Below are positions 1-20,014 of a stretch of 63,954 nt of DNA, one piece after another. A program made the position numbers and the translations under genes. Position 1 is the stretch's first letter; each line of letters begins with the position of its first letter. The notes under the pieces are model-generated. The model did not search any database, had not been told where the DNA came from, and saw only the letters and a list, made by a program, of their open reading frames with translations. The stretch is from a bacterium (GTDB lineage: Bacteria; Bacillota_I; Bacilli_A; Izemoplasmatales; UBA1188): the NCBI GenBank assembly GCA_017960565.1, contig JAGCYY010000019.1, forward strand, positions 1 through 63,954, in the 5' to 3' direction.

Positions 1-152
1 ATAGACTAGTCCATCACTGCGAACTAATAAAAATAACTGGGATGTCATATAGAATCAAAGATAAGAATATATTTGATGATGACATTTAAAAACAACATTT
101 TGAGTTGAGCGAAAAAATACAATTTGAGGTTGACTTTTACAATAAAATCTCC

Positions 153-490
153 TTAGTCCCTCTTTCCATACATCTTATCATAATATTTTTAAATATTCTC
201 CAGATGTACATTCATCTAATCAGTCTTTATGTTCTTGATATAATTTAATTGTTTGTTTAATACCATCTTTAAACATAATTGTTGGTTGCCATCCTAGTTC
301 AGCCATTGCTTTGGATGGATCAATTGCATATCTTTGGTCATGACCTTTTCAATCAGTCACATATGCAATTAAAGATTCAGGTTTACACAATTCTTTTAAT
401 ATTATCTTAACTATTTCTATATTTGCTTTTTCGTTATGTCCGCCTAGATTATATACTTCTCCTACTTTTCCTTTTTCAAGTACAGCAAGT
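153..490 (-). pseudogene. rfbB: 3' fragment of a dTDP-glucose 4,6-dehydratase (RfbB-type) gene, copy 1, decayed
   Basis: The minus-strand translation reads [97 protein letters not shown]. This is only the C-terminal ~110 aa of an RfbB-like SDR. It carries two in-frame TGA codons and a +1 shift in an A-run before the final YYDKMYGKRD*. It is clearly alignable by eye to 12978..13310. Confidence 0.8.
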
Positions 491-503
491 ATTTCTTCAA
501 ATA

Positions 504-932
504 TTAGTTTTTCTTGTAATATCTATTAGTGGTACCCTTCCAGTCTATTCTTTTGCCTAAATTGTTAGTAATACCATATCCTTTAATACCATATCTTGAA
601 CAAATATCACATTTAACAACTTTATATTGTTTTTCATTAATAGAAAAATTCGGATAATTATCTGCTTTACTCCTATTATTATCCCAGTGCATAGGTTCAT
701 AGTTATTCATAAAATCTGCATCAGATTCGTTTTCAAAATTAGACCTAGGTCTAATATGATCAACCTCCCATCCATATGAATAACTTTCACCAGTTCCTCC
801 AGGTCTATCATTTCTCTTTGTGGATGTATCGCCATAATCATCTCGATACATCCATATTCCGAAACAATCAGTAGCCCATTTTCTATTTCCGAAAATGTCA
901 TCCCACATTTTTAATGCTTTTTCTTTTTCCAT
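504..932 (-). CDS. Small stand-alone HNH-family endonuclease-like protein (142 aa)
   Basis: HNH-like core [11 protein letters not shown]...[35 protein letters not shown] at 936..942 sits directly upstream of the ATG at 932. The GTG start in the ORF track lies inside that RBS, so I prefer 932. Confidence 0.7.
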
Positions 933-1005
933 AAACACCTCCACTAATCAATTCGTTTGAATAATACTATTGTTAATAAGACTTATTTTCAAAACCACCG
1001 CTATA

Positions 1006-1065
1006 TTAATCTCTTCTAAATAAATCTCTTGTATATACTTTATCTGCTACATCAACTATGTGTTC
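1006..1065 (-). pseudogene. ugd: About 60-nt remnant of a UDP-glucose 6-dehydrogenase 3' end (third ugd copy)
   Basis: The minus-strand reading ..[18 protein letters not shown] matches the C-terminus of the full ugd (..[17 protein letters not shown]). The nucleotide string ttaatctcttctaaataaatctcttgtatatacttta is shared with 13336 onward. An in-frame stop lies just upstream. Confidence 0.7.
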
Positions 1066-1395
1066 CTAATACAAATGGTCCCTCTTGGAGTGAATTTGCG
1101 AAGTTTGCCATATTCATTTGCGTAATTTGTTGTTTTTACCCATTAATCAGATAAAATAGGGTTGAAAATAGGCATTTTCGGGTCCAACACTACTCATCTA
1201 AATTTTAGCATGAAAATAAAAAACGATTCTGGATTTTACCTAAAACTACAGTACTTTTATTTGTGTTCATCAACTCAAAGGACTTCCAATTGGGTAGATG
1301 CCATCTACCTACTATCTACCTTTCATTGGAAAGAGCCTTTACTTAACCAAATACACTTCCATTTATTATTCTAGCCTATTTACTTGCCTATATAA

Positions 1396-2022
1396 CTAAC
1401 ATATTTTATTGTTGCAACAATATCCCAGTTCCATGCACAACAGACTCAACTGACAACATATTTTTGATAAAATAATATCCATATTTAAAGCATCAACCAA
1501 TCCTTCAGCTTTTGTTCCTTTTGAATAGATTTTATTCCCATCTTTATACATTTGTTTAAGCAAATCTAAACTCTCCTTTTGTGGAATTTTATACTTTTTG
1601 CCTAATTTTAAAAGTTTGATAATGCCTTGAATATCTATCAAAAAGAAATCTTCAATCATATCATCAGCCACAATCTCAATTATTTTTGAAGCACCACAAT
1701 CATAAAAATCTTTTTTCATTTTGTCTCTGTTAATTGGAGGGTTTGTATTAGTTTTTTTAAAAACATCTTTATCATAACAAAAACAAACTATTTTCTCATA
1801 TTTTGAGTACTCAGAATTGTTACATATTTCGATTTTGAATTTAGCTAGCATTTTTCTGTGCAAATTTCCTATGCCATCAGCACACATATATTTTATTTCA
1901 TTAAAATTAAATTTCTTGCACTTATTTTTGGCTTTTGTGTAGTTAATTACTCGTTTATAGAATTCTTCATCCGTTGGGCCTTCGGTAACTACAATTAGAA
2001 TTCTTTTATTATCACTAATCAT
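1396..2022 (-). CDS. TOPRIM/RloB-like (AbiLii / AriB-like) putative nuclease partner of the upstream ATPase
   Basis: N-terminal RILIVVTEGPTDEEFYKRV (EGxTE/D TOPRIM glutamate motif of RloB/DUF4435 proteins). A later VCFCYDKDVF acidic motif is also present. The start overlaps the ATPase stop by 8 nt. Confidence 0.6.
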   Translation of the reverse strand: MISDNKRILIVVTEGPTDEEFYKRVINYTKAKNKCKKFNFNEIKYMCADGIGNLHRKMLAKFKIEICNNSEYSKYEKIVCFCYDKDVFKKTNTNPPINRDKMKKDFYDCGASKIIEIVADDMIEDFFLIDIQGIIKLLKLGKKYKIPQKESLDLLKQMYKDGNKIYSKGTKAEGLVDALNMDIILSKICCQLSLLCMELGYCCNNKIC

Positions 2023-3307
2023 TCTCTAAATATTTTTTTACAAGATCTAAATCAAATTCATCATATCCGCTTACTACAGAGAATAAATATTCGCCCGTTT
2101 GAACTCCCATTTCTTCAGCGTAATCAATAATTTTGTTAATTCCTTTATTGGAAATGCTTTTAAAAATCGCTCTTCCATCACTAGTTGGCTCGCCAATATA
2201 TAAATTCTTTAAGTCGATATAATTGATTAAATATGGTGAATGACTTGTAATAATCACTTTAGAATATTCCATAAACCCATCAATTACATCAATATACTTT
2301 TTTAATAAACCAGGATGAACAGAATTTTCTGGTTCCTCAATTCCAATTAAAGGAACTCCCTTAATATCAGCTAATGTCATATAAGTTAATAATGATAGTA
2401 TTCTCTTTACACCATCAGACATATAATTAAATGGAATTGTTTTGGCCATATACTTGTCATTAACATACAAAGTATAAATGTAATCAGCAAGTTCAAATGG
2501 AGAATTTTCATCAATATTAACTTTTAGGTTTTTTTCTGCTAAATTAATCTCCTTTATTTTAACATCATTAATATATGGAAAGAAATCCATTAATGTATTA
2601 ATAATCAGTTCATACTTATTCTTGTGTTCTTTTTTTAAATAGTATAAAGTGCGAGCAATATTGTTATCAGAATAAAGTGAAAGATTATCATTATTTTTTT
2701 GGATAATAGGAACTGCATCAAATAACTCCCTTGCATCAAAGTGTCTATCCACGAAAATATTCAATTCATTTATGCTGCTTACAACATCAAGATAGAATAA
2801 ATCATCGAAAGCACTAATTTTATTAATAATTAATTCACTATCATTTATAATAATATCTTTATCGCATCTTCCTTTTGGGGCGGATTGATATTTTGCAGAT
2901 TCAGTTGTTCTATCTATAAAAGTTGCAAATTTTTGGCTATCATTTTGTTTTACTTTCAAGTATTCAGCAACAATAACTCCTGGTTGCTTAGAATTTTTTG
3001 CCCAGGCAAATTCATATCCATATTTAACTATCTTAGTTTCATCTGAAAAACATTCAAAAACAATTTCAAATCTAAAATTTTTTCCAAAATCAGTTATATT
3101 CAGTGGAAGTCCAGGCTTCCAACTCATCATATTTTTCTTATCGTTTGATGAAGCAGATATAAAATCAAAACCAAAATTAATAGAAGTCAAAACATTTGAT
3201 TTGCCATAGTTATTTGAAGACAAAAAAGTATTAATTTTATTCAAATTAATAGTTAATTCATGAATATTTTTAAAACCATCGACACATAAATTCTTAATAT
3301 TAATCAT
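2015..3307 (-). CDS. ABC/SMC-like AAA_15/AAA_21 ATPase (OLD/AriA/AbiLi-like), 430 aa
   Basis: N-terminal P-loop NNYGKSNVL. C-terminal MSDGVKRILSLL (signature-like), LIGIEEPENSVHP (Walker B/D-loop) and VIITSHSPYLI (H-loop). A GAGAGGAG RBS precedes the start. Confidence 0.75.
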   Translation of the reverse strand: MINIKNLCVDGFKNIHELTINLNKINTFLSSNNYGKSNVLTSINFGFDFISASSNDKKNMMSWKPGLPLNITDFGKNFRFEIVFECFSDETKIVKYGYEFAWAKNSKQPGVIVAEYLKVKQNDSQKFATFIDRTTESAKYQSAPKGRCDKDIIINDSELIINKISAFDDLFYLDVVSSINELNIFVDRHFDARELFDAVPIIQKNNDNLSLYSDNNIARTLYYLKKEHKNKYELIINTLMDFFPYINDVKIKEINLAEKNLKVNIDENSPFELADYIYTLYVNDKYMAKTIPFNYMSDGVKRILSLLTYMTLADIKGVPLIGIEEPENSVHPGLLKKYIDVIDGFMEYSKVIITSHSPYLINYIDLKNLYIGEPTSDGRAIFKSISNKGINKIIDYAEEMGVQTGEYLFSVVSGYDEFDLDLVKKYLEND

Positions 3308-3341
3308 TTTCCATTACTCCTCTCATGATTAAGATGTTTAT

Positions 3342-3370
3342 ATAATAGCATTTTTTAAAATAAAACGCAA
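3342..3370 (-). promoter_or_regulatory. Candidate sigma-A promoter for the 2015..3307 ATPase pair
   Basis: On the minus strand: TTGCGT (3365..3370), a 17-nt spacer, then TGcTATTAT extended -10 (3342..3350). This is about 35 nt upstream of the ATG. The -35 lies in the terminator stem of the upstream operon. Confidence 0.35.
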
Positions 3371-3389
3371 GATGTTTTTGCGTTTTTTT
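3362..3389 (-). terminator. Hairpin terminator downstream of the fnl operon (roughly bidirectional)
   Basis: AAACGCAA-gatgttt-TTGCGTTT stem-loop flanked by T/A runs on both strands, in the 360-nt gap after fnlB. Confidence 0.45.
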
Positions 3390-3665
3390 AAACTTCATAT
3401 ATTTTTTATATTTGTTTTCTAATAAATACGCACATTATTTATGCGTTTAAAATTTTACTTTAATACCAAATATCTTTTCAAATTGTGTTAATAAAAGTCG
3501 TTAAATGATTGGTTATAACTTTTTATAGTATATCAACATTATCTTGTTTTGTTTGTATACTATTATACATTTCTTAACAATATTCGAAATAACAATCGTC
3601 AATGCATTCTTTTATCCATTCAGTACTGCTTTCAATCTCTTCTTTATCTATTTTGTATATTATTA

Positions 3666-4859
3666 TTAAACTATTTCAAAGAATGTATCAGGTTTATCTT
3701 TATTAAATATCTCGTTAGAAGTCATTACTGTAACTAGGTTTTCAGTATTAGATAAATTAATGATATTATGAGTCCATCCTGGGATCATATATACAGCCTC
3801 AATTTTATCTCCTGATACTTCAAACTCTACAAATTCATTAGTATTGATATTTCTTTCTTGAATTAATCCATGACCAGATACTACTATGAATTGTTCCCAT
3901 TTAGAATTATGCCAGTGATTACCTTTAGTTATTCCTGGTTTAGATATATTTATAGATACTTGTCCACAATCTAATGTGTGGACAAGTTCAGTGAAGCTTC
4001 CTCTCTCATCAACATTCATTTTTAATGAATATTTAAATTTATCTTTTGGTAAATAAGATAAATATAATGAGAATAACTTCTTCGCAAAACTACCATTAGG
4101 CATTTTAGGCATAAGTAGTGTTATTGGTTGAGTTTTAAATTCTTCTAATAAATCAACTATTTCACCAAGTGTTACTTTATGTGTTACTGGTATAGTACAG
4201 TATTTACCAGTATCAGTTAAAACTGTTTCTATTCCATTAAATTCACAGTGTTTTTCTTTTCCTTCTAAAAGATCAAACATTCCTTCTACTAAATCATCTA
4301 TATATAATAGTTCTAATTCAGTATTTCTATCATTAACTGTGAATTCTTCATCATTAGCAATTGCATAACAAAATGTAGATACAGCACTATTATATCTTGG
4401 TTTGCTATGGCCCATTAAATTTGGAAATCTATATACATATACATTAACATTATTATTCTTTCCATATTCAAAGAATAATTCTTCACCAGCAAGTTTACTC
4501 CTTCCATATAAGCTTTCCCCAAATCTACCGGAAAGAGTTGCTTGAATGGATGATGAAAGCATAATAGGAGCTTTATTATTATGCTTTTTAAGTGTATCTA
4601 ATAGGATAGATGCAAAACCAAAATTACCTTTCATAAAATCTTCTTTATTATCTGGTCTATTGACCCCAGCAAGGTTAAAGACGAAATCTGCCTTAGAGCA
4701 GAATTCGTCTAGTTTATTTTCATCTCCCAAATCATATTCCATTATTTCATCTATATGAATGTTTGGTCTAGTTTTGTTTTTGCCATTTCTTATGTTTTTA
4801 AGATTATTAACTAAAGCTGTACCAACCATTCCTTTTGAACCAGTTACTAGAATGTTCAT
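3666..4859 (-). CDS. fnlB: CapF/FnlB-type bifunctional reductase/epimerase (N-terminal SDR + C-terminal cupin) of the UDP-L-FucNAc pathway
   Basis: MNILVTGSKGMVGTAL Rossmann start. The C-terminal part ..DERGSFTEL..GNHWHNSKWEQFIVVSG.. is cupin-like. It is adjacent to fnlC and fnlA homologues. Confidence 0.8.
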   Translation of the reverse strand: MNILVTGSKGMVGTALVNNLKNIRNGKNKTRPNIHIDEIMEYDLGDENKLDEFCSKADFVFNLAGVNRPDNKEDFMKGNFGFASILLDTLKKHNNKAPIMLSSSIQATLSGRFGESLYGRSKLAGEELFFEYGKNNNVNVYVYRFPNLMGHSKPRYNSAVSTFCYAIANDEEFTVNDRNTELELLYIDDLVEGMFDLLEGKEKHCEFNGIETVLTDTGKYCTIPVTHKVTLGEIVDLLEEFKTQPITLLMPKMPNGSFAKKLFSLYLSYLPKDKFKYSLKMNVDERGSFTELVHTLDCGQVSINISKPGITKGNHWHNSKWEQFIVVSGHGLIQERNINTNEFVEFEVSGDKIEAVYMIPGWTHNIINLSNTENLVTVMTSNEIFNKDKPDTFFEIV

Positions 4860-4863
4860 AATA

Positions 4864-6018
4864 TTATTCTTTTCTCCAAACCATTCTATTAACTATATTA
4901 GTATATGATTGAATAATCCTTACTACTTTCATTGATACGTTAGTATCAGTGTAATCTGGACAAGGTTTACCAAGCACATTATTTCTCTTCATTTCTATTG
5001 CCATTTCAGTTGCTTGAAGAAGTTCTTTTTCTGTTATTCCAGCAATTATGAAATCTCCTGCTTCTATTGCTTCGGGACGTTCAGTTGAAGTTCTAATACA
5101 TACTGCAGCAATAGGATGATTAATAGATAGATAGAAACTACTTTCTTCTGGAAGTGTTCCAGAATCACTTACTACTGCAAGAGCGTTCATTTGAAGGTTA
5201 TTATAATCATTGAATCCTAGAGGTTCATTAACTCTTACTCTAGGATCTAATTTAAATCCTGTTTCTTCTAATTTCTTTTTACTTCTTGGATGACATGAAT
5301 ATAGAATTGGCACATTATACTTTTCAGCAAGAGAATTAATAGAATTAAAAAGATTATTAAAATTCTTTATAGTATCTAGATTTTCTTCTCTATGTGCTGA
5401 AAGAAGGATGTATCCATCTTTCTTTAATCCTAATCTTTTTAACACATCACTATTTTTAATTTTATCTAAATTCATTGAAAGAACTTCTGCCATAGGCGAA
5501 CCTGTGACATAAGTTCTTTCTTTTGGCATACCACATTCTATTAGATAACGCCTTGCAGCTTCACTATATGGAAGATTAACATCTGATATAATATCTACTA
5601 TTCTTCTATTAGTTTCTTCTGGAAGGCATTCATCTTTGCATCTATTACCAGCTTCCATATGAAATACTGGGATATGAAGACGTTTTGCATTAATTGCAGA
5701 TAGGCAGGAATTAGTATCACCTAAAACTAATACTGCTTCTGGTTTTAGGTCTACCATTAAATCATATGTTTGGCTTATGATATTAGCACATGTTTCACCT
5801 AAGTTTTTACCAGCAACATTTAATAATACGTCCGGTCCACCTAAATCAAAATCTTCCCAGAAAACAGTAGATAATTGTTTATCATAATTTTGATTTGTAT
5901 AACAAATGATTGTATCTAAATATTCTTTAGATCTTTTCATTACAGCAGCAAGTCTTATTATTTCAGGTCTAGTACCACATATTATTAATAATTTAGTTTT
6001 ACCATTTTCTTTCCACAT
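4864..6018 (-). CDS. fnlC: Non-hydrolysing UDP-N-acetylglucosamine 2-epimerase (CapG/FnlC-type)
   Basis: LLIICGTRPEIIRLA.., VLVLGDTNS.., HMEAGNR.., VSDSGTLPEES are typical WecB/CapG family motifs. Confidence 0.85.
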   Translation of the reverse strand: MWKENGKTKLLIICGTRPEIIRLAAVMKRSKEYLDTIICYTNQNYDKQLSTVFWEDFDLGGPDVLLNVAGKNLGETCANIISQTYDLMVDLKPEAVLVLGDTNSCLSAINAKRLHIPVFHMEAGNRCKDECLPEETNRRIVDIISDVNLPYSEAARRYLIECGMPKERTYVTGSPMAEVLSMNLDKIKNSDVLKRLGLKKDGYILLSAHREENLDTIKNFNNLFNSINSLAEKYNVPILYSCHPRSKKKLEETGFKLDPRVRVNEPLGFNDYNNLQMNALAVVSDSGTLPEESSFYLSINHPIAAVCIRTSTERPEAIEAGDFIIAGITEKELLQATEMAIEMKRNNVLGKPCPDYTDTNVSMKVVRIIQSYTNIVNRMVWRKE

Positions 6019-6019
6019 A

Positions 6020-6463
6020 TTATTTGTCCTCCTTTTTATTAAGCAATTCTATAAAATACTCTTTTGATATCCATTTTTTGCGATATATTTCCTCATTTAT
6101 AGTAATTGTTTTTAAACTACCATTTAGATACATATCAAGTCTATACTTTAAACACTCGTCATCGAGTTGCATTATTTTCATTCCATATTGTCCTCGATGC
6201 TGATTATAATGTTTAATGGTTTCAAACATTGCCCAATATTTTTCAATAATTTCTTCATTTAAACGAGTGTTATGTTTTTTGCACTGTGAAATAAAATAAT
6301 CCTTATTAAACCATTTTTTACCGCTAGTTTTTTTGTATAAAAGCACATCATCAACAAAAATATAAAACCTTTTCATATCCAAAGGATGGCAACTTTCTGG
6401 ACTGCTTTTTATCCAAGACATAAAGTCTATTTCAATTGGATTAATTCTTCTTACCAAAATCAT
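6020..6463 (-). CDS. Hypothetical 147-aa protein wedged between fnlA and fnlC
   Basis: The ORF is packed with 4-nt and 1-nt gaps to its neighbours. I recognise no motif. The sequence is basic and Lys/Tyr-rich. Confidence 0.55.
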   Translation of the reverse strand: MILVRRINPIEIDFMSWIKSSPESCHPLDMKRFYIFVDDVLLYKKTSGKKWFNKDYFISQCKKHNTRLNEEIIEKYWAMFETIKHYNQHRGQYGMKIMQLDDECLKYRLDMYLNGSLKTITINEEIYRKKWISKEYFIELLNKKEDK

Positions 6464-6467
6464 AAAA

Positions 6468-7670
6468 CTATTCCATAATTCTTTCCTTAATATATGATAA
6501 TTCCATTATCTTTTCTTTAGTTTCTTTTAAATTAAGTATTCTAGTATTATTTGAATTGAATTCTTCAATAGTAGCTCTCTTTGTATCACCTTCTATGAAA
6601 TACTTATCATAGTTTAAGCCTCTATTATCAGCTGGTACTCTATAGAAATTACCCATATCAATAGCTTTAGCACATTCTTCTTTAGTGAGGAGTGTTTCAT
6701 ACATCTTTTCACCATGTCTAATACCTATCACTTTAATATCTGATTTTTTGCCACCAAAGAGTTCACATACTGCTTCAGCTTGTGTTCTAATAGTACAAGC
6801 TGGAGCTTTTTGAATTAATAGATCTCCATTTTGCCCATTTCTAAAGGCAAATAAAACAAGATCAACTGCTTCATCTAATGACATGATGAATCTTGTCATA
6901 GATGGTTCAGTTAATGTAATAGGATTGCCTTGTTTTATTTGATCTATCCATAGAGGTATTACAGATCCTCTAGAACACATTACATTTCCATATCTAGTAC
7001 AGCATATTCTTGTGTTGCCACTATTCCTACTCTTAGCAATAGCTACTTTTTCTTCTAATGCTTTAGAAATTCCCATGGCATTTATTGGATAAGCTGCCTT
7101 ATCTGTAGATAGACAGATAACGCATTTAACATTAGCATCTATGGCAGCAGTTAATACATTGTCAGTACCAATTACATTGGTTCTGACTGCTTCCATTGGG
7201 AAGAATTCACACGATGGAACTTGTTTAAGTGCAGCAGCATGGAAGATATAGTCTACTCCAGGCATTACACCTCTACAAGATTCAAGGCTTCTTACGTCTC
7301 CTATATAGAATTTTACTTTAGAAGCATGTTCTGGATATTTTACTTGTAGTTCATGACGAAGATCATCTTGTTTCTTTTCGTCACGAGAGAATATTCTTAT
7401 CTCAGCAAGTTCACTATCAATAAATCTTTTTAATACTGCACCACCAAATGAGCCAGTACCACCAGTTATTAGTAATACTTTATCTTTCAAGATATTAACA
7501 TCTTTATCAGCATATTCTTCTAATATTTCTTTTATTCTTTGTAGTTTTAATTGATCAGCTGAATCTTCATCTTTTTCATAAGCACAATAAGTTCTTAGTG
7601 ATGTATGAGAGATATTCGCAGCATCTTTTTGGGTTAAACTACATTTATTTCTTAATTCTTTTAATGTCAT
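6468..7670 (-). CDS. fnlA: UDP-GlcNAc 4,6-dehydratase/5-epimerase (CapE/FnlA-type) with an N-terminal XRE-type HTH extension
   Basis: The core LLITGGTGSFGG..RIFSRDEKKQDD..FHAAALKQVPSCEFFP..CLSTDKAAYPINAMGISKA..TRYGNVMCSRGSVIP is near-canonical CapE. About 60 extra N-terminal residues read MTLKELRNKCSLTQKDAANISHTSLRTYCAYEKDE (HTH_3-like). The start is set at the ATG at 7670, which has a GGAGG RBS. The longer track ORF is an upstream read-through. Confidence 0.85.
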   Translation of the reverse strand: MTLKELRNKCSLTQKDAANISHTSLRTYCAYEKDEDSADQLKLQRIKEILEEYADKDVNILKDKVLLITGGTGSFGGAVLKRFIDSELAEIRIFSRDEKKQDDLRHELQVKYPEHASKVKFYIGDVRSLESCRGVMPGVDYIFHAAALKQVPSCEFFPMEAVRTNVIGTDNVLTAAIDANVKCVICLSTDKAAYPINAMGISKALEEKVAIAKSRNSGNTRICCTRYGNVMCSRGSVIPLWIDQIKQGNPITLTEPSMTRFIMSLDEAVDLVLFAFRNGQNGDLLIQKAPACTIRTQAEAVCELFGGKKSDIKVIGIRHGEKMYETLLTKEECAKAIDMGNFYRVPADNRGLNYDKYFIEGDTKRATIEEFNSNNTRILNLKETKEKIMELSYIKERIME

Positions 7671-7678
7671 AATAAAAA

Positions 7679-7700
7679 CCTCCGAAACGTATTCCGGAGG
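7679..7700 (-). promoter_or_regulatory. Hairpin that pairs the fnlA RBS (GGAGG) with an upstream CCUCC
   Basis: The minus strand reads CCTCCG-gaatacgttt-CGGAGG followed by TTTTTATT and the ATG. The 3' stem arm is the only Shine-Dalgarno for fnlA. Confidence 0.5.
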
Positions 7701-7851
7701 TATTATAATATAAATATGCAATAATTGCAAGTTATATTTTATATAAACAACAATATTATGAATTTATAGTGATAATTATAAGCAATTTTAGCAATTATTT
7801 TTTGATATTAATAAAATATAGTCTTTTGAAGCTGAATAAATATAATTGATA

Positions 7852-8424
7852 TTATACCAACGATAAACAATACTCTACAAATTCATCCATATTTGTACTA
7901 TTAACAAGTTCAAGTTTCTTTTTAAATAATTCAATTTCATTGTATGAATTCATTGACAATATACCTTTATTGATTGGAAACGCTTTAAAATAATATGTCC
8001 CTTTAATATTATCTTTAATCATTGTTGTCATTATTTTTGCCTTATGTAAGACATTTTCAAGTTTTGGAGAATTATAGATGGGATAAATATAGTCATACAA
8101 TGGGTGTGCTTTAAACATTGATTTATCCAAAAAACTATTTTTTTCTTTCTCTGTGCAATCATCAGTATCCATTATAATAAATAATTTAAAATTTACTAGT
8201 TTCTTGTTTTTATATTCAATACCACATCTATCAGCAAACGTTTTTAGTGATTTAAATTGTTTAATAAAATTTAATACACTTGTTATTTGTATCGAGCTTT
8301 GCCCTTTATTATTCGAAAAAATTTCTAATTTCAAATGAAGATTTGATTTTATATATGATACTATACGACGTTCAGAAAGCCCATGGCATATAACGGCACA
8401 CCTGCAATATTTTAGATCTCTCAT
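7852..8424 (-). CDS. Divergent TOPRIM/RloB-like small partner protein (190 aa)
   Basis: N-terminal CAVICHGLSERRIVSYIK sits where RloB/OLD TOPRIMs have EGxTE. FIIMDTDDC is a DxD-type acidic motif. The start lies 1 nt after the ATPase stop. Confidence 0.5.
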   Translation of the reverse strand: MRDLKYCRCAVICHGLSERRIVSYIKSNLHLKLEIFSNNKGQSSIQITSVLNFIKQFKSLKTFADRCGIEYKNKKLVNFKLFIIMDTDDCTEKEKNSFLDKSMFKAHPLYDYIYPIYNSPKLENVLHKAKIMTTMIKDNIKGTYYFKAFPINKGILSMNSYNEIELFKKKLELVNSTNMDEFVEYCLSLV

Positions 8425-8425
8425 A

Positions 8426-9760
8426 TTATGTGTCTATGTTTACCTTTTTTAAGTTTTCGATAATTTCATTATAATCAACATATTGCACAAAAGGAATTCC
8501 GCCAAACAAACCTTTCATATATCTTAATCGAGCGCTATTAGAATCTTGCAACTTATATTCAGATAAACAAACAATCTCTTTAAATCCATCATAATTTCCA
8601 TTTATAATGTAAACATATTTAGCATCCAACGATTCCAATAGGCTAGTATTATGTGTTGTAAAAATCAACTGACCAGTAATATAATCTTTCATTGAATCTA
8701 TAACAACCTTTAATAGCAAATCATGTATTCCATTATCAACTTCATCAATTATAATAGTACAGCCACAAAAGGCGCCAAACAAATATCTTAATATTTCTAA
8801 TATTTTTCTAGTTCCTGTAGATTCATTCTCAACAGGTATTTTTCTAATTTTGCCATTGATATACTTGTTAAATAAGAGTTTATACTTTATTCTCTTATCA
8901 TCTATTTTTTCTGCAAATTCAACTTTTTTTATATCCGAATAAGTTTGTATGAAAAAATCATTTAATATTTTCTCTGTGTTTAAAAGCAACCATTTGTTTT
9001 CTTTATCTATTGATCCGGATTCTAAGTCAAAAAGGAAATTGATTTTCTTGCATGAATCGACTCTAGAAATACCATCACCACTCTTAATCATAATAGATGT
9101 TTCGCTTATCATGTTATGAAAATCATATAGATAGTTAGATATATTTTCCTGTATATAATCATTGTTCAAATTATTAAGCATATCATAAACAATAGAAATG
9201 AGTGAATGTTTTCCCCAATACTTCAATATTCTATCAATAACCTCTGATATAATCTTATTACTCTTAAAAACCTGAGTTGATAATTTAGGATTCTTTATAT
9301 CTTCGCTTGATATTTCGAAAACAGTGCCACTTTGTTTACCGGTAAAATAATATAATTTTTCATATACTATAACATCATTATATTCAATTATATAGCTACC
9401 TTCATGACCATTAACTTCAAAACCATATTCGAGTCTAGAATTATCCTCACATTGAATTGTTCTTGAACTCTTGAACAAATTAGAAAGTGTTTGTTCATTC
9501 ATGTATCTAATCAAAATTGGTGGCACTTCTCTATTTTCTTGTTCTTCTAAAAATCTAAGAAATCTAACCTCTCTTTTTTCTAAATCAAATGTATGTATTA
9601 GATTCTGCAAAAAATAAAAAGAACGAATTAAAGTTGATTTACCACATCCGTTTTCGCCATAAATTACAGCTATTTTTTTTATTTTGTCCCTGGTTTCCTT
9701 TAAATCAAATGTAACATTATTTAATGAAAGGAAATTGTTCAATTTTACATATGTAAACAT
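8426..9760 (-). CDS. AAA_21-type ABC ATPase (AbiLi/RloA-like), 444 aa
   Basis: Walker A YGENGCGKSTLI. ESTGTRKILEIL signature-like motif. TIIIDEVDNGIHD Walker B. LIFTTHNTSLL H-loop. C-terminal RYMKGLFGGIP is typical of this family. Confidence 0.8.
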   Translation of the reverse strand: MFTYVKLNNFLSLNNVTFDLKETRDKIKKIAVIYGENGCGKSTLIRSFYFLQNLIHTFDLEKREVRFLRFLEEQENREVPPILIRYMNEQTLSNLFKSSRTIQCEDNSRLEYGFEVNGHEGSYIIEYNDVIVYEKLYYFTGKQSGTVFEISSEDIKNPKLSTQVFKSNKIISEVIDRILKYWGKHSLISIVYDMLNNLNNDYIQENISNYLYDFHNMISETSIMIKSGDGISRVDSCKKINFLFDLESGSIDKENKWLLLNTEKILNDFFIQTYSDIKKVEFAEKIDDKRIKYKLLFNKYINGKIRKIPVENESTGTRKILEILRYLFGAFCGCTIIIDEVDNGIHDLLLKVVIDSMKDYITGQLIFTTHNTSLLESLDAKYVYIINGNYDGFKEIVCLSEYKLQDSNSARLRYMKGLFGGIPFVQYVDYNEIIENLKKVNIDT

Positions 9761-9786
9761 TTCATAGCCCTCCTAATCTCACATAT

Positions 9787-9815
9787 ATTTTAATATTTTT
9801 ATACACTTTAGTCAA
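9787..9815 (-). promoter_or_regulatory. Sigma-A-type promoter of the 8426..9760 ATPase pair
   Basis: Minus strand: TTGACT (9810..9815), a 17-nt spacer, TAAAAT (9787..9792), then an AGGAGGG RBS before the ATG at 9760. Confidence 0.55.
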
Positions 9816-9971
9816 TAACTTTGTTGTTTTTAATATATTTTATAGATATTTTGTGAATCTTTTGCTTTAATATCACTATATCTTTACAAAGTGTTAATAA
9901 AGTGATTATATTATTAATTGTTTTATATTTTCTAAAAACGCTTTCATTATATGATTATTATAACCACTACA

Positions 9972-10000
9972 ACAAAAAAAGGAGAACTTATGAGTTCTCC
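9972..10000 (-). terminator. Rho-independent terminator after the ugd fragment
   Basis: GGAGAACT-tatg-AGTTCTCC perfect 8-bp stem (9981..10000), followed on the minus strand by a T7 run (9974..9980). Confidence 0.7.
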
Positions 10001-10022
10001 ACATTTTATATGTTTTTAACAT

Positions 10023-10403
10023 TTAGTCTCTTCTAAATAAATCTCTTGTGTATGTTTTATTTTCTACATCATCTAATGAACTATCATATCTATTAGCTAT
10101 AATAGCATTTGATAGTTTTTTAAATTCATCTAGGTTATTTATTACTTTACTACCAAAGAATTCGCTACCATCTTCTAATGTTGGTTCATATATAATAACA
10201 TTTACACCTTTAGCTTTAATTCTCTTCATTATTCCTTGAATAGATGATTGTCTAAAGTTATCACTATTAGATTTCATTGTGAGTCTATAGATTCCAACTG
10301 TAATTCTATTAGCTTTAGTTTCATTAAAGCCAGCTATTTCTAATACTCTATAAGAAATAAAGTCTTTTCTTGTTCTATTGGATTCAATAGTAGTAGATAA
10401 CAC
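10023..10403 (-). pseudogene. ugd: C-terminal 126-codon fragment of a second, diverged UDP-glucose 6-dehydrogenase allele
   Basis: ..[72 protein letters not shown] aligns with the last ~125 aa of 13336..14538, with roughly 70 % identity by eye. The N-terminal two-thirds of the gene are absent. Confidence 0.85.
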
Positions 10404-10452
10404 ATTATTTATTTCTTTGTTGATTGTTTATACTATCAATAAACGATGAAAA

Positions 10453-12870
10453 TCATTTATTTATATTGCTCATAATTCCAATTAACTCTTTTGCTGCATC
10501 ATCACTTATTTCTGAAAAAATTCCCTTTTTGACATTTTTTAGTTGTCTTTCAGAAATATGTTCCGGATCAATTTTTTTATAAATTATACCTCTAAGTGCG
10601 GAAAGTTTATCATCGTTTGGAGAACATAATAATCCGTAATTGCAAACTTCTAATGCTTCATCATACTTGCCTAATTCCATTAAATACTTAGCATGTGCGT
10701 CAGATGTACGTCCGTTTTTGTAAAGATTATTTTTATCGTTTTGCTGATAATATGCTTTTTTAAAATGAAAAATAATCTCATCGCTTAGTGAAACAATCTC
10801 ATTTTTGTTATGATAAAAACGAGTAAGTGCAACCGCCAATCCAAAGTGATAATTTTGAAAATCACGAATGGAAAGAGCTCTTTTAAAATAGTCTATAGCT
10901 ACATCATTTTTCTTAATGTATGACAAGTAAAATGCATATTCAGCAATATAATAATCATTATCTTGATCGAGCTTTATTGCGCTTTCATAATCATTTCTTA
11001 TCTCGGTGACGTTGTCATCAGCTTTATTTTCTAATTCCGCTTTAAAAAAATATAAGTATGCAAAATTTGGAATTTCATTTATTAATTTTATTATTTCTTC
11101 TTTGATGTCTACATAATTGAACTCAGCATCAAATTTCCTTCTTAATTCTCTTGTTGCCAAATAAGCTTTTTTTCGTTCAAAATCAAATGCTTTGACTCTA
11201 TTAAATAAACTGATTTCATAAGAACTAATTTGTGTTTTTGTTTTAGACCATTCATAATAATTATTACTGATGTTTTCCTTGCCTTTTAAATCAATGTCTT
11301 TCATTTGTTTATTTACAAAAACTTTAACGAGAGGCTGACATGTATAGTTTTGATTTACTTGTGAACAAAAAGAACAAGTAAATAAATTTATCATTGCATT
11401 ATTTATATCGCTGTCATCAACTTTCAAAATATAACGTAAATCAGCAATAGAAAATTCTTCTCCACTAATGTCAGAAATAGACATAACAAACAAAATCTTT
11501 TTTTCTAGAATGCTTAAATTATCAAAAGTACTTTTGAAACAAAACTTCATAACAGAATCGTAATATGAGTTATTCTTTTTCATATTACGAAGAGTATTTA
11601 CAATTGCTTCTACGTTTCCACCATTAGATATTTTATATACTATAAGATTTATCAATATTGGAGAACCATGAACCAGTTCAATTAAATCATTCAAATACTT
11701 GTTTATATGAGATAGCAATTCTTTCTTTCTAGATAATGCATATTCATCAAGACAATTACTAACATACTGAAAGAATTGTGTCTTATCAAAGCCAACTAAA
11801 TCAATTCTTTTATAAGTATCTGTCATACTTGTTCTAGTAGTAAAAATAATTCTACAATTTAATGGTATTTCTCTAGTAAATTTTAAAATATCTTCGTTAG
11901 TAATTGTTTCCATATTGTCCATAACAATTATAGAATTATATTTTAACAATTTATCTAAAATATCATTTTTTAAATCGTTTTCATCCTTCCCAAAAGTATC
12001 TATTGATAATACATCTGTAAATGTTTCAATCATTTCGCTAAAAGATAGTTCAGATTCTCTTAAGGGTGCTATGTATCCTGTCGATGAAAAAGTATCAAGT
12101 TTTCCAGTTATCCAAATAACGTACTTTATTTGAATATTTAGTTTTATTTCACCACTACATATCCTATCACAAAAATTTCTAACGAAGGATGTTTTCCCGA
12201 TGCCACCCAAACCATTGATTTGAGCGCATCTTATTCTATCGTTGTTTAACGAATCTAAAAGGATTTCTAAATCATTTTTTCTATCTATATATGTTTTATA
12301 TGGAGGAGCAATTTTATTAAGATTTGTAATTATTGACATATTTGAAGCTCTTAAAGAAAAGAAACTTTTGTCATCATTTACACGACATGAACTAGATTTA
12401 ATACGACCATATATATCGTCTTTAGAAAAAACATGTTTTAGTTCTTTCGTCCCATTTGCTTTTGTTCGATAGTATTCTCCATCTTTTGTGAAGACAATCG
12501 GATTGTCTTCTTTTTTATCAATTGTTAGGAGAACAAAAATATCATTATCTAGTTCATATTTACCTATTTGAAAATTAGGAACACAATCGACATATTTTTT
12601 AATGAATGGAACAATGTAGCTATCATCGGCATTTTCTATAGTTGATCTACTATCCAGGCCAATCCAATCACAATCCCTATCGGTTACTCCAAAAATAATG
12701 TATCCTCCTTCGGTGTTTGCAAAAGAAACAATATCCTTTGTTAATTCTAATTTTTCTCTTGTTTCATCAAACTTAAAACATTCTTTGTAATCAATATTTT
12801 CGCTTTCCGCATTTACTTGTTGGTTCTTTATTCTTTGTAATACTTCCTTTGAGTTTTTAAAGTCAGGCAT
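10453..12870 (-). CDS. STAND NTPase with N-terminal AlbA_2/Schlafen-like domain and C-terminal TPR-like repeats (Avs/bNACHT-like antiviral candidate), about 805 aa
   Basis: N-terminal ESENIDYKECF..IVSFANTEGGYIIFGVTD (AlbA_2 signature). P-loop INGLGGIGKTSF. Walker B IIVMDNMETI. The C-terminal ~250 aa contain repeated Y/A/L helical pairs (AIKLDQDNDYYIAEYAFYLSYIKKNDVAIDYFKRAL.., AHAKYLMELGKYDEALEVCNYGLL). The start is set at the ATG at 12870, which has an AGAGGA RBS. The stop is TGA. Confidence 0.75.
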   Translation of the reverse strand: MPDFKNSKEVLQRIKNQQVNAESENIDYKECFKFDETREKLELTKDIVSFANTEGGYIIFGVTDRDCDWIGLDSRSTIENADDSYIVPFIKKYVDCVPNFQIGKYELDNDIFVLLTIDKKEDNPIVFTKDGEYYRTKANGTKELKHVFSKDDIYGRIKSSSCRVNDDKSFFSLRASNMSIITNLNKIAPPYKTYIDRKNDLEILLDSLNNDRIRCAQINGLGGIGKTSFVRNFCDRICSGEIKLNIQIKYVIWITGKLDTFSSTGYIAPLRESELSFSEMIETFTDVLSIDTFGKDENDLKNDILDKLLKYNSIIVMDNMETITNEDILKFTREIPLNCRIIFTTRTSMTDTYKRIDLVGFDKTQFFQYVSNCLDEYALSRKKELLSHINKYLNDLIELVHGSPILINLIVYKISNGGNVEAIVNTLRNMKKNNSYYDSVMKFCFKSTFDNLSILEKKILFVMSISDISGEEFSIADLRYILKVDDSDINNAMINLFTCSFCSQVNQNYTCQPLVKVFVNKQMKDIDLKGKENISNNYYEWSKTKTQISSYEISLFNRVKAFDFERKKAYLATRELRRKFDAEFNYVDIKEEIIKLINEIPNFAYLYFFKAELENKADDNVTEIRNDYESAIKLDQDNDYYIAEYAFYLSYIKKNDVAIDYFKRALSIRDFQNYHFGLAVALTRFYHNKNEIVSLSDEIIFHFKKAYYQQNDKNNLYKNGRTSDAHAKYLMELGKYDEALEVCNYGLLCSPNDDKLSALRGIIYKKIDPEHISERQLKNVKKGIFSEISDDAAKELIGIMSNINK

Positions 12871-12892
12871 ATTTTTCCTCTTTTTATGTAAA

Positions 12893-12900
12893 ATTATACA
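12893..12900 (-). promoter_or_regulatory. Extended -10 element (TGTATAAT) upstream of the STAND gene
   Basis: The minus strand reads gcTGTATAATttta about 22 nt upstream of the ATG at 12870. I found no good -35. Confidence 0.35.
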
Positions 12901-12977
12901 GCTTTTTAAAATGAGATTTTTACGCATAATTATTTGTAATAACGTTTTTATATAGATCAAACAAGAAATTAGATTTT

Positions 12978-13310
12978 TCATCTATTTCCATACATCTTTT
13001 CGTAGTATTCTTTATAATTACCACTAGTACATTCTTTCATCCAATCCATATGGTTTTTATACCATTTTATTGTTAGTTTAATGTCATCTTTAAACATTGT
13101 AGTTGGTTTCCATCCAAGTTCTTTCATTGCTTTGGATGGATCGATAGCGTATCTTAAATTGTGTCCTTTTCTATCAGTTACATATATTATCAAACTTTCT
13201 GGTTTATTTAATTCTTTTAATATTATTTTAACTATTTCTATATAGCTTTTTCGTTATGACCACCTAGATTATATACTTCTCCTACTTTTCCTTTTTCTAG
13301 TACAGCAAGT
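12978..13310 (-). pseudogene. rfbB: 3' fragment of a dTDP-glucose 4,6-dehydratase gene, copy 2 (frameshifted)
   Basis: Reads [23 protein letters not shown] and then, after a 1-nt shift, ..IIYVTDRKGHNLRYAIDPSKAMKELGWKPTTMFKDDIKLTIKWYKNHMDWMKECTSGNYKEYYEKMYGNR*. It is truncated at the same ..gtacagcaagt breakpoint as copy 1. Confidence 0.85.
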
Positions 13311-13335
13311 CGAGTAATCAGAAACTATGTTTTAG

Positions 13336-14538
13336 TTAATCTCTTCTAAATAAATCTCTTGTATATACTTTAGTTTCTACATCATCTAAGTTGTTATCAT
13401 ATCTATTAGCTATAATACAACTACAATGCTTCTTAAAGCTATTTAAATCATTAACCACTAATGAACCAAAGAATTCACTACCATCTTCTAATGTTGGTTC
13501 ATATATTATAACTTTAACACCTTTAGCTTTAATTCTTTTCATTACACCTTGTATAGAAGATGCTCTAAAGTTATCACTATTGGATTTCATAGTTAATCTA
13601 TATAATCCAATAGTTATCTTATTAGCATTCTTCTCAGTATAATTAGCTTTTGATAATACTGCTTCAGCTATATGATCTTTTCTTGTTCTATTAGATTCTA
13701 CTATTGCTGATATCAAATTTTCAGGAACATCCTGAAAATTTGCTTTTAATTGCTTAGTATCTTTTGGAAGACAATAACCACCATAACCAAAAGATGGGTT
13801 ATTGTAATGTGTTCCAATTCTTGGATCTAAACATACACCATTAATAATATCTTTTGTATTTAATCCTTTTATCTCAGCATAAGTATCTAATTCATTAAAA
13901 TAAGATACTCTAAGTGCTAAATATGTATTAGCGAATAGTTTAACAGCTTCAGCTTCTGTTAAACCCATATATAGAATTGGAACATCTTCTTTTAATGCTC
14001 CTTCTTTTAATAGATTCGCAAATACTATAGCTTCCTTTTTATTCTCTTCTTCACATCCAACAATTATTCTTGATGGATATAGATTATCTTCAAGAGCTTT
14101 TGATTCTCTTAAGAATTCAGGAGAGAATAAAATACTATTAGAATTATATTTTTTTCTAATATATTCAGTATATCCTACTGGAATAGTTGATTTGATAACC
14201 ATAATAGCATTAGGATTAATTTTTAATACTAATTCTATTACACTTTCAACTGCTGAAGTATCAAAGAAATTTTTGATTGGATCATAATTAGTTGGAGCTG
14301 CAATAATCACAAATTCAGCATCTTTATATGCCTTATCGGCATCTAAAGTAGCAACTAAATTAAGTTTCTTTTCTTTTAAATACTTTTCAATATATTCATC
14401 TTGAATAGGTGATATCTTATTATTAATTTTATCTACCTTTTCCTTAATAATATCTACGGCATATACTTCATTGTTTTGAGCAAGCAAAACTGCCAGAGAT
14501 AGTCCTAAGTATCCTGTTCCTGCAACAGCTATTTTCAT
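13336..14538 (-). CDS. ugd: UDP-glucose 6-dehydrogenase
   Basis: [14 protein letters not shown] Rossmann start. Catalytic region [14 protein letters not shown]. Full length is ~400 aa. The start is set at the MKIAVAG ATG. Confidence 0.9.
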
Positions 14539-14569
14539 AAAAAATCGTTTCCCCTTAATAAACAAATTT

Positions 14570-17549: not shown

Positions 17550-18716
17550 TTATTTCCTGCCCTCTGCTTTTTCCTTTTCTTCAAGTTCACGAAGTTTCAT
17601 TTCTTCATAATAATCATCGTCAAAATCATCTGGATATGATTCCTCTTCTCTTACATAATCACTATCCGTAAGTGAAATTTCATTATTCGTTATTCTAGGA
17701 TTATTAATTTCTAACTTTCCGCTTTTATATTCATATTCTGCTTCAACAATCAAAAGGCCGTTTGTTTTATAGTGAATAGTACTATAAACGCTTGGGACAA
17801 AAACATATTCCTTTTCTTCGGAATCCCAGCATCCGTTATCATAATCTCTATAATTCACATCCTGACACGATTCGATATGGTAAAGAATGGCAACCACAAT
17901 TGACTTGGCGTCCTTATCCTTTCTAATTATCAATGCTTTATCCAATTCCATTGATAAAATATTAGAATTGGTAACTTCGATATCATAATAAGAATACCTA
18001 AAAGAAGAGAGTTGCTCGCTAAAGTCTTTTTCAATATCGTTGTCGAACATTGAATTGAAATTGGCTTTAAAATAGCTTTCGCACTCTTCATTATCTTTCC
18101 CTGTAATAGAAGCCAACATGGACAATATGTGCTCATGAGATTTTGAAAAAACAATATTGCTGTTTTTGACAACTTCTTCATCATCTGTGATAATCACGCC
18201 TCCTCTTAACATCGTATGAGAAAGCCAATCGTTGTCATTTGAAAGAATAAAAAGTTTGTTATCTTTTGAATAATTAATTATGGAATCAATCGCAAAGGCA
18301 TCAGGAAATTCATTTTTCTTGTCTTTCGATTCAAATGCGCCAACCCCACTAAAATAATCACTGAAAACAGAATCTGCATTAACGCCGTTTAAATCGATAG
18401 CGATTATCCCAAATTTCTCCTTAAAACCATCAAATTTGTTCAAGGCTATTCTCGACAAAAAATTCAAGTCAAGCTTATTGGAGAATGTTCCGTCATTCGC
18501 CAGGCACCTAACACGAGAAGCACATTTATTAATAGTGCTGGCAGAATCTCTTGTCTGTTCCAATAAATGTCTTTCTATTTCTTTATCAACAATGCTGCTA
18601 ATAACAATTTTCACAGTTCCATTTAAAATATATTCTTCGAGATATTTAAAAAAATTGTTATCAAAATTAAAGCAAGTACTAACTATGTACGATGTGTCAA
18701 ATGTTAAATATATCAA
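17550..18716 (-). CDS. PIN-like (DUF4935-type) domain protein with uncharacterised C-terminal domain and acidic tail, 388 aa
   Basis: N-terminal IYLTFDTSYIV..GTVKIVISSIVDKEIERH.. and ..EFPDAFAIDSIINYSKDNKLFILSNDNDW resemble the acidic-residue pattern of PIN-like DUF4935. TTG start with a strong GGAAGGTGA RBS. The stop lies 1 nt from the epimerase ATG. Confidence 0.6.
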   Translation of the reverse strand: MIYLTFDTSYIVSTCFNFDNNFFKYLEEYILNGTVKIVISSIVDKEIERHLLEQTRDSASTINKCASRVRCLANDGTFSNKLDLNFLSRIALNKFDGFKEKFGIIAIDLNGVNADSVFSDYFSGVGAFESKDKKNEFPDAFAIDSIINYSKDNKLFILSNDNDWLSHTMLRGGVIITDDEEVVKNSNIVFSKSHEHILSMLASITGKDNEECESYFKANFNSMFDNDIEKDFSEQLSSFRYSYYDIEVTNSNILSMELDKALIIRKDKDAKSIVVAILYHIESCQDVNYRDYDNGCWDSEEKEYVFVPSVYSTIHYKTNGLLIVEAEYEYKSGKLEINNPRITNNEISLTDSDYVREEESYPDDFDDDYYEEMKLRELEEKEKAEGRK

Positions 18717-18747
18717 AGTTAATCACCTTCCTTTTATCATCTAATAA

Positions 18748-19494: not shown

Positions 19495-19495
19495 A

Positions 19496-19993
19496 TTACT
19501 CGCCCTCGAAATCACCGATAAGCCTTGCTGTATTAGGATTTAATTTAAGAATGAATCTAATTAGTACGCCTGCGAACGTCTCGCAAAAATCAAACTCCAA
19601 CTGCTTATTAGTCCACTCATCGATACCATAATATCTCCACTCAACGAATGTGTTAGAAATGGCATCGATCTTTTTTGAAATATTATCCTTATCAATTTCC
19701 AAGATTTTACTTAATGCGGTTTCTAAAAATAGTTTTATCTCTTCTGGTAAAGAATCATATAATGTCTTGATATTGTGGGTCTTCTCAAAATCTATGCTGT
19801 TCTGACTAAGCAGTTCCTTTAGGGACAATTCTATTGAAAGACAAGAATTCACGGAACTAGGTATTGACTGAAACATGAAATGATCAACAAGGTTTTCGGA
19901 TAATTGTTGGTCATTCCTAATAATCAATCCACTTTTGTAAAAGGAATAACTACTAATAATTGTGAGTGATAGTCTTTCGGGCGGTATCTTCAT
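19496..19993 (-). CDS. HEPN-like domain ORF (165 aa), possibly the C-terminal remainder of a disrupted larger gene
   Basis: SIELSLKELLSQNSIDFEKTHNIKTLYDSLPEE ... ISNTFVEWRYYG resembles the classic HEPN pattern (helix-LK, tHdL..L, ..RY). It is in the same frame as 20015..20122 upstream, separated only by TAG-CCA-TAG plus 4 codons. Confidence 0.5.
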   Translation of the reverse strand: MKIPPERLSLTIISSYSFYKSGLIIRNDQQLSENLVDHFMFQSIPSSVNSCLSIELSLKELLSQNSIDFEKTHNIKTLYDSLPEEIKLFLETALSKILEIDKDNISKKIDAISNTFVEWRYYGIDEWTNKQLEFDFCETFAGVLIRFILKLNPNTARLIGDFEGE

Positions 19994-20014
19994 TATTAAC
20001 CTTCGCTATGGCTA

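Follow-up and report, generated by a model that had tools for sequence, protein, structure and literature searches.

Many defence islands lie in genomic hot spots and hold neither an integrase nor a transposase, and how such islands arrive and spread is an open question. The present analysis concerns one end of a polysaccharide locus in an uncultured bacterium of the Izemoplasmatales, within the first 63,954 nucleotides (nt) of the 107,621-nt contig JAGCYY010000019.1 (assembly GCA_017960565.1); this whole stretch is referred to below as the window. The guanine-plus-cytosine content of the window organism is ~29%, and its polysaccharide locus runs from ~39.4 kb down to the window start, with the housekeeping genes gltX, clpB, ackA and priA lying beyond it. 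At the distal end of the locus, pieces of ugd (UDP-glucose 6-dehydrogenase) and of rfbB (dTDP-glucose 4,6-dehydratase) are repeated among candidate phage-defence genes. No integrase or transposase was found among the open reading frames (ORFs) of at least 100 amino acids (aa) in positions 1-14.6 kb, which were searched with Pfam and, in the case of defence-type ORFs, also with PADLOC. We consider it probable that additive insertion of the Campbell type, through homology at ugd, explains the locus. Foreign DNA would have been added several times, without a recombinase of its own, with conserved ugd acting as the homology anchor.

The ugd copies and their allele mosaic

A repeat search combined with gapped alignment recovered, all on the minus strand, the full series of ugd and rfbB pieces that had been laid out in an earlier reading of this DNA (the sequence-only reading). 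The repeat search placed three copies of the ugd 3' end at 13336-13635, 10023-10322 and 1006-1061, and two copies of the rfbB piece at 153-490 and 12978-13310. The extra pieces of both genes are all 3' ends in direct orientation and the upstream ugd copy is intact. A tblastn search of the whole 64-kb window turned up no additional piece of either gene, nor an rfbB of full length. A protein search with Ugd returned relatives at 81-95% aa identity, and the contigs of several were retrieved; these are designated by L numbers. The repeated pieces and their subdivisions are as follows.

13336-14538, minus strand: full ugd, intact, 400 aa
14538-13583, minus strand: 'core' of full ugd, gene nt 1-956, 99.3% identical to L090
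13582-13336, minus strand: 'F tail' of full ugd, gene nt 957-1203, ~83% identical to L090 and 97.6% to L092
13311-13335, minus strand: 25-nt spacer from the ugd stop codon to the rfbB'B breakpoint, without a terminator
12978-13310, minus strand: rfbB'B, the last ~110 codons of the dTDP-glucose 4,6-dehydratase gene, with a frameshift after codon 22
10023-10403, minus strand: ugd' fragment C, ugd nt 826-1203, with an ORF of 126 codons
10278-10400, minus strand: 'G head' of fragment C, differing from L090 at 39 of 123 sites (~68% identical)
10270-10277, minus strand: shared interval of fragment C, 8 nt
10023-10269, minus strand: 'N tail' of fragment C, 95.5% identical to the L090 ugd tail
9981-10000, minus strand: terminator-like hairpin and T-run, directly after fragment C
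1006-1064, minus strand: ugd remnant A, the last ~60 nt of ugd
153-490, minus strand: rfbB'A, the same ~110 codons as rfbB'B in a different allele, with two in-frame TGA codons and a frameshift near the 3' end

Full ugd matches NCBIfam PRK15057 at 1e-171 with 571 bits, under the equivalog cut-off of 757 bits, and passes the nucleotide-sugar dehydrogenase subfamily model TIGR03026. Pairwise alignment upheld the earlier suggestion that the copies are diverged alleles and not recent duplicates. Nucleotide identity is 78.5% between fragment C and the ugd 3' end (300/382), 90% between remnant A and the resident ugd end (54/60, with the final 36 nt the same) and 81.1% between the two rfbB pieces (270/333). 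Considered as a possible attachment-site core of a site-specific element, the ugd ends share 23-36 identical nt, but this stretch encodes the conserved C-terminal peptide YTRDLFRRD. Remnant A may continue in decayed form to about 1131. The ugd copies are foreign alleles, not local duplicates, because the F tail finds its counterpart in L092, the N tail in L090 and remnant A in the ugd tail of L097 (52/54, 96%).

The clearest trace of the process is seen when the two longest copies are compared with L090. Nucleotides 826-1203 of ugd occur at 13336-13713 and again, in direct orientation, at 10023-10400, 3313 nt apart. L090 and its companion L091 (95% aa identity in Ugd) have four genes in common with the window, from a UDP-glucuronate-epimerase-like gene to ugd, at 91.6% nt identity. 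The full window ugd shows 6 differences from that of L090 in nt 1-825 (99.3% identity), 3 in nt 826-948 and 43 in the 247 nt of nt 957-1203, whereas in fragment C the trend is reversed, with counts of 39 for nt 826-948 and 11 for nt 957-1203. Considered site by site, the window copies differ from each other at 40 positions in nt 826-948, where L090 has the base of the full copy at 38, and at 46 positions in nt 957-1203, of which 39 have the fragment C base in L090. The resulting mirror-image mosaic (Fisher p = 7e-15) has both of its switches within one 8-nt interval, ATGAAATC, at ugd nt 949-956. As read from the alignment, the L090 gene is in effect the 5' part of the window ugd followed by the 3' part of fragment C, with the junction in ATGAAATC. 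Such a mosaic is the outcome expected of a single reciprocal crossover with circular DNA, and it supports the earlier proposal that homologous recombination at conserved ugd shaped the locus.

The following series of events could produce this structure. Each incoming segment, carrying a ugd 3' end of its own, would recombine with the resident ugd by host homologous recombination, and the resident 3' end would be pushed downstream to survive as a dead fragment. In the best-resolved event the segment would measure 3.3 kb and comprise the F tail, the 25-nt spacer, rfbB'B, a STAND-type NTPase gene and the G head. One reciprocal crossover within ugd nt 949-956 would then separate the occupied state of the window from the unoccupied allele of L090. 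A circular molecule bearing a ugd 3' fragment and cargo would integrate in Campbell fashion, and the pattern would be no different had the event run in reverse, as a loop-out. A comparable earlier event may, by analogy, have added the N tail, the terminator, an AbiL-like gene pair, an fnl-like operon and a HEC-01-like pair, leaving remnant A. The cargo brought in by these routes would be mainly candidate phage-defence genes together with one sugar operon. What we infer from the sequence is that the intermediate was circular, that the event was an insertion and not an excision, in what order the events came and that the cargo serves in defence. Retention of the displaced resident 3' end argues that the events were additive and not replacements, since replacement by double crossover leaves no duplicate; the duplicated 3' ends are for this reason better accounted for by additive insertion than by the cassette replacement previously put forward.

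Several observations weigh against this account. The window, L090 and L092 are near-identical over ugd nt 401-956, so that the crossover in the full copy can be placed only within that range, and the coinciding switches could reflect a conserved block in which crossovers tend to fall. No G-type head allele was found among 120 relatives, the best match being 71% at the aa level. L090 is not a simple parent, as it is only ~70% identical to the window immediately before ugd and unrelated to it past the gene. The older event, marked by remnant A, is reconstructed by analogy with the younger one, and the cargo is candidate defence cargo as judged from its sequence. The ugd of L092 and L093 lies in other surroundings, preceded by Pribosyltran and PUA_3 genes, and is 75% identical to that of the window over nt 1-400 and 98.4% over nt 401-1203, the F tail included. 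L092 therefore carries core and F tail as one continuous allele, and the window ugd could have come whole.

This last point fits a linear import, which is the best of the alternatives although we regard it as rather unlikely. A donor molecule with upstream sugar genes, a whole ugd (core and F tail), rfbB'B and the STAND gene would have recombined homologously at its left end, and its right end would have been joined illegitimately to the resident ugd at nt 826. Fragment C would then be the 3' third of a resident ugd with a G core and an N tail, the process being one of homology-facilitated illegitimate recombination. In addition to the continuous allele of L092, the abrupt non-homologous junction at the 5' edge of fragment C is in agreement with such an import, as is the DNA upstream of ugd, which is a patchwork of recombination tracts at 82-99% identity. 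However, linear import requires the L090 allele to have arisen separately and to switch within 9 nt of the G-to-N switch of fragment C, a coincidence with a chance of roughly 5% unless the block is a crossover hot spot, and no G-core allele was found among the 120 relatives. We favour the single crossover over the linear import; both are additive, and neither is a clean replacement. The ugd core itself has also moved recently between lineages. When window 13583-14560 is compared with L090, near-identity (99-100%) sets in sharply at the ugd start codon, so that L090 shares ugd by recombination and not by simple descent.

The stretch behind ugd in related lineages

Insertion at ugd by a single crossover is consistent with what lies behind the gene in its relatives. 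In L090, L092, L094 and L097 homology to the window ends 0-13 nt past the ugd stop codon (13 nt in L092), and different cargo follows. L094 (78% nt identity) has an OLD-like ATPase-TOPRIM gene before ugd and, after it, AbiTii, a DNA methylase and an HATPase_c_3 protein, followed by rmlA and rmlC; a 114-aa gene between the last two was considered as an rfbB fragment and proved not to be one. In L097 (80% nt identity) ugd is followed by five cargo genes and a full-length rfbB, then by FRG, a methyltransferase, Abi_2 and DUF2971. In L093 (1532-2900) a terminator and an HNH gene of 356 aa separate ugd from a decayed 3' remnant of ugd, which corresponds to ugd nt 1029-1136 and beyond and is 79% identical to the N-type tail. 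This remnant of the L092/L093 lineage is an independent scar of the same type, with other cargo, in another lineage.

A fifth layout is provided by L179 (4015-16778), a contig from a rumen metagenome, in which rmlD and rmlA are followed by an HNH gene, two small genes, rmlC, a STAND gene and a full-length rfbB. The HNH gene, which lies between rmlA and rmlC, is 56% identical at the aa level to the HNH gene of the window. This rfbB is directly followed by a ugd 3' fragment of 196 nt, beyond which lie HATPase_c_3, Abi_2 and AbiH. In this clade, then, defence-type genes are found in between ugd and the rml genes, and 3' fragments of the anchor genes mark the junctions. The window itself clusters AbiLi-like and HEC-01A/AriA-like ATPases, a STAND gene and an HNH gene, in addition to a HEPN/HNH_5/PIN_12 trio, and differing defence-type cargo adjoins ugd or rml genes in L094, L097, L092/L093 and L179. 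The variable, defence-rich stretch that had been proposed behind ugd is thus borne out by relatives whose cargo differs and whose homology stops at the ugd stop codon. The proposal of capsule switching is not, since no other complete sugar cassette was found in this position in any relative.

Wider scans of genome and metagenome contigs with Ugd gave relatives of at most 76% identity from many phyla, which were used for the background rate only. Extra ugd pieces were present near ugd in ~5 of ~165 of these more distant loci, one of which (L130) has no interpretable cargo.

The rfbB fragments and the assembled arrangement

The rfbB' fragments are 62% identical at the aa level to the full-length rfbB product of L179, itself a bona fide RmlB by TIGR01181 (452 bits, cut-off 365). 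Homologous to it and disrupted in frame, they are dead rmlB pseudogene fragments. Each premature stop in rfbB'A is a TGA, one of them in place of a conserved Trp codon (TGG); chance is the probable reason, although a donor in which TGA encodes Trp would produce the same. As the sequence-only reading had stated, rfbB'A and rfbB'B share one breakpoint, both beginning at ACTTGCTGTACT. Upstream of it their flanks are unrelated, consisting of the end of an HNH gene plus 13 nt in the case of rfbB'A and the ugd stop codon plus 25 nt in that of rfbB'B.

The same reading held that the truncation preceded the duplication of the unit. According to that model, one ancient truncation created a 'ugd-rfbB'' unit that was then duplicated, and repeated double-crossover replacements of capsule cassettes left the scars. 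It draws on the shared first base of the two fragments, on the position of each behind a ugd end whose last 36 nt are identical, and on L097, where ugd and rfbB flank variable cargo. Set against this is the nature of the divergence between the fragments. Their 95 shared in-frame codons contain 52 differences, distributed 13/10/29 over the three codon positions (chi-square p = 0.0024), and the ratio of nonsynonymous to synonymous change (dN/dS) is 0.16 with a dS of 0.74. The low ratio and the third-position excess indicate that most of the divergence arose under purifying selection, while the alleles were working genes. Furthermore, L095 holds a B-type rfbB fragment, 92% identical at the nt level to rfbB'B, which has ~100 nt more of genuine rfbB sequence on its 5' side and lies elsewhere, between a KdsC-like gene and an epimerase-like gene. 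With the unrelated upstream flanks, these findings speak against a truncation older than the duplication, at least in its simple form, and double-crossover replacement does not create duplicates in the first place. We therefore hold this model to be improbable.

The identical 5' breakpoint of the two fragments is nevertheless not accounted for by a single crossover at ugd and counts against it. There could have been one old truncation, after which the whole homologous tract was overwritten by recombination with working alleles; overwriting of rfbB' by recombination of the transformation type would naturally run to the edge of homology. Alternatively, a site-specific process may have made the breakpoint, for example if the neighbouring HNH nuclease or another element cut or inserted there and repair truncated different alleles. 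The breakpoints of the two alleles agree within 3 nt in spite of their unrelated upstream flanks, the HNH gene ends 13 nt from breakpoint A, HNH genes also adjoin ugd or rml junctions in L093 and L179, and a possible 5-nt imperfect repeat (ACTCG/ACTTG) can be read off the alignment at junction B. However, no HNH gene lies beside breakpoint B, the other rfbB fragments found in metagenomes have other 5' ends (their products are 144, 118 and 102 aa long) and the proposed specificity of the nuclease has no support, so that this explanation appears even less probable than the duplicated unit.

Two further ideas about the fragments were considered and rejected. A mosaic origin of rfbB'B, with an A-like first 66 nt of recent common origin and the rest brought in by a later crossover, is not upheld, as the first 66 nt are equally conserved in L095 (65/66 to the B allele). 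A family of truncated rfbB genes was suggested by a search in which the top 120 relatives of the rfbB' peptide were all short, but we regard this as a search artefact, since the representative of a cluster can be partial even where other members are of full length. A separate metagenome protein, P0171, begins as RmlA and continues, from the peptide LPVY common to both, as a C-terminal fragment of RmlB, and its ORF looks like a microhomology deletion between neighbouring rml genes.

The arrangement as a whole is genuine. Exact-protein look-ups found the same gene order in five metagenome assemblies, which match the window at 99.98-100% identity over lengths of up to 22.5 kb. Two of these are MEGAHIT-style k141 contigs and three are scaffolds with the name prefix XIEF21-1, so that two kinds of assembler and different samples are represented. 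The agreement of five independent assemblies disposes of the chimera that the sequence-only reading had allowed for. The name prefixes XIEF21, STEW19 and TONG22 suggest ruminant gut studies, and we take the metagenomes to be presumably of ruminant gut origin. One end of the arrangement coincides with an edge common to the assemblies:

1-141, no strand assigned: assembly edge stretch; assemblies of this strain stop at window position 1 (k = 141) or 87 (scaffolds)

Because all of the assemblies stop at one or other of these two positions, k-mer reasoning would place the edge of a repeated or strain-variable element probably near position 141, ~12 nt past the rfbB'A stop codon. A 916-nt contig of another sample spans only window 87-1002, that is, the HNH gene and rfbB'A. 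Collapsed repeats joined into an assembly chimera, or a tandem duplication that arose in place and then decayed, might be suspected since the contigs all end just past rfbB'A and a repeat lies close by, but this can safely be set aside, as the five assemblies agree, copies that are just 78-81% identical cannot collapse during assembly and every copy matches another lineage more closely than its own genome.

Cargo genes and likeness to known systems

The genes that lie between the ugd and rfbB pieces are listed here in the order in which they are read.

10453-12981, minus strand: STAND-type NTPase gene, candidate defence gene (Pfam SLFN_AlbA_2, NB-ARC, TPR)
7852-9760, minus strand: AbiL-like pair, an ATPase at 8426-9760 (AAA_21; PADLOC AbiLi, 2e-44) with a 190-aa partner
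3666-7730, minus strand: fnl-like operon of four genes
6468-7730, minus strand: FnlA-like gene with an N-terminal HTH_3 extension (TIGR04130, 478 bits against a cut-off of 730)
6020-6463, minus strand: ORFan of 147 aa, with no Pfam family and a weak match to phrog_3439 (5e-4)
4864-6018, minus strand: WecB/FnlC-like 2-epimerase gene (WecB-type model, 224 against a cut-off of 210, passed)
3666-4859, minus strand: WbcJ/FnlB-like reductase gene (WbcJ-type model, 302 against a cut-off of 500)
1396-3307, minus strand: second ATPase pair, an ATPase at 2015-3307 (AAA_21/AAA_15; PADLOC HEC-01A 2e-30, AriA 3e-24) with a 208-aa partner
504-944, minus strand: small HNH-type nuclease gene, 142 aa from an ATG at 932

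The labels given to these genes by the sequence-only reading fared unequally. The STAND gene and the ATPases were confirmed by their domains, and the terminator behind fragment C by a terminator-like hairpin and T-run at 10000-9981. The TOPRIM assignment of the two ATPase partners is weakly supported, since the 208-aa partner matches DUF4276 over its full length but at E = 0.13 and the 190-aa partner has no PADLOC, Pfam or PHROG match. The HNH label is weak in Pfam (E = 0.025) and agrees with a PHROG HNH match (7e-4) and with the homologue in L179. Of the fnl labels, the WecB-type epimerase passes its model and the FnlA-like and WbcJ-type products fall under their equivalog cut-offs. These genes are related to FnlABC, which make UDP-L-FucNAc, and would be candidate members of that exact pathway.

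The STAND ORF encodes 842 aa, or 805 aa from a likelier start at 12870, and found no match among the PADLOC models. Its closest homologue (63% aa identity) lies inside the rml operon of L179, and a homologue at 40% is labelled Anaeroplasmataceae. Translational coupling of rfbB'B to the STAND gene through an ATGA overlap was rejected, as other gene calls start 37 codons later and the L095 homology crosses the site. The two ATPases are 29% identical over their C-terminal halves only, so that the pairs are different systems and not duplicates of each other. Neither pair has a nucleotide homologue in ~170 related loci, whereas the sugar genes of the region do.

The FnlA-like dehydratase carries an HTH_3 extension of ~60 aa at its N-terminus, which is unusual for this enzyme, and the metagenome protein P0219 likewise fuses HTH_3 to an RmlB C-terminal fragment. 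A second defence-like cluster is located 3-5 kb up the sugar locus from the repeat region (window 17550-21437) and comprises HEPN (19496-19993), HNH_5 (18748-19515) and PIN_12 (17550-18716) genes on the minus strand; it adjoins a broken glf that is called as pieces of 132 aa and 99 aa. Elsewhere in the window, a gene for TnpB (an IS200/IS605-type RNA-guided nuclease) at 61860-63475 lies beside tRNA-Glu and tRNA-Asn, and the ClpB ORF at 46292-48397 on the minus strand matches its family model from position 147 only, so that the N-terminal domain seems to be missing or separately encoded.

The locus is a clear, well-preserved example of a known process and not a new kind of system. Campbell-type single crossover is used for gene disruption in the laboratory and is seen when circles that bear a gene fragment integrate by homologous recombination. 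Here, as there, direct repeats of the target gene flank the insert, and the alleles form a mirror-image mosaic around one crossover point. Of the two copies, the one upstream is whole and the one downstream is missing its 5' part. The present case differs in being natural, in involving alleles that are ~80% identical and a 3' arm of 380 nt, in carrying defence cargo, and in that the circle is deduced from its product.

Hot spots for defence islands occur in gaps of the core genome. The 'minimal mobile elements' of Neisseria are variable islands without a recombinase that lie between conserved genes (PMC3787668, PMC1797815). The window locus resembles such islands and hot spots in its conserved flanks (ugd and rfbB/rml), its lineage-varying, defence-rich cargo and its want of mobility genes. 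Exchange at such sites is usually described as a clean double crossover, while at this locus it would be cumulative, with displaced anchor fragments, and takes place inside a polysaccharide locus.

The toxin genes rhs and cdiA also trail displaced orphan 3' ends. Similar orphan ends are described for the 3' cassettes of tpsA (PMC3848433). What these systems have in common with the window is a full gene with its older 3' ends arrayed behind it and cargo between them, new tips being acquired through the conserved part. In those systems, however, the 3' end is the selected, variable payload, whereas the ugd tail is a passenger of no evident role with the payload behind it. There is no toxin/immunity module here, so that the locus is not a member of this group and the likeness is one of architecture only.

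Exchange of capsule and O-antigen genes at flanking galF, gnd and ugd is known in Enterobacterales (PMC4453057, PMC7305143, PMC8259999). Those loci have in common with the window a ugd anchor at the edge of the polysaccharide locus, sugar genes in mosaic and pseudogene remnants. They differ in that no alternative complete serotype cassette is seen here, the turnover being of defence genes, and in the uncultured, low-GC host, apparently of ruminant-gut origin. A limited literature search found no account of defence genes stacked behind a ugd anchor in a capsule locus.

The locus preserves, at base level, the footprint of one route by which defence genes may be gained, namely homologous recombination through a carried fragment of a neighbouring gene, the displaced end of which becomes a datable scar. 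It may be, and we offer this tentatively, as something short of an expectation, that defence cassettes in this clade move as recombinase-free circles tagged with a ugd or rfbB 3' fragment, integrating and looping out by host homologous recombination. Islands free of mobility genes would in that way spread between strains and stack behind the anchor, and the identical rfbB breakpoint would represent the fixed end of a cassette. If the route is general, 3' fragments of conserved genes could be used to mark and order the acquisition of defence genes in metagenome-assembled genomes. In this organism, phage-defence genes and surface-sugar genes, both of which are under phage pressure, would turn over together at one site.

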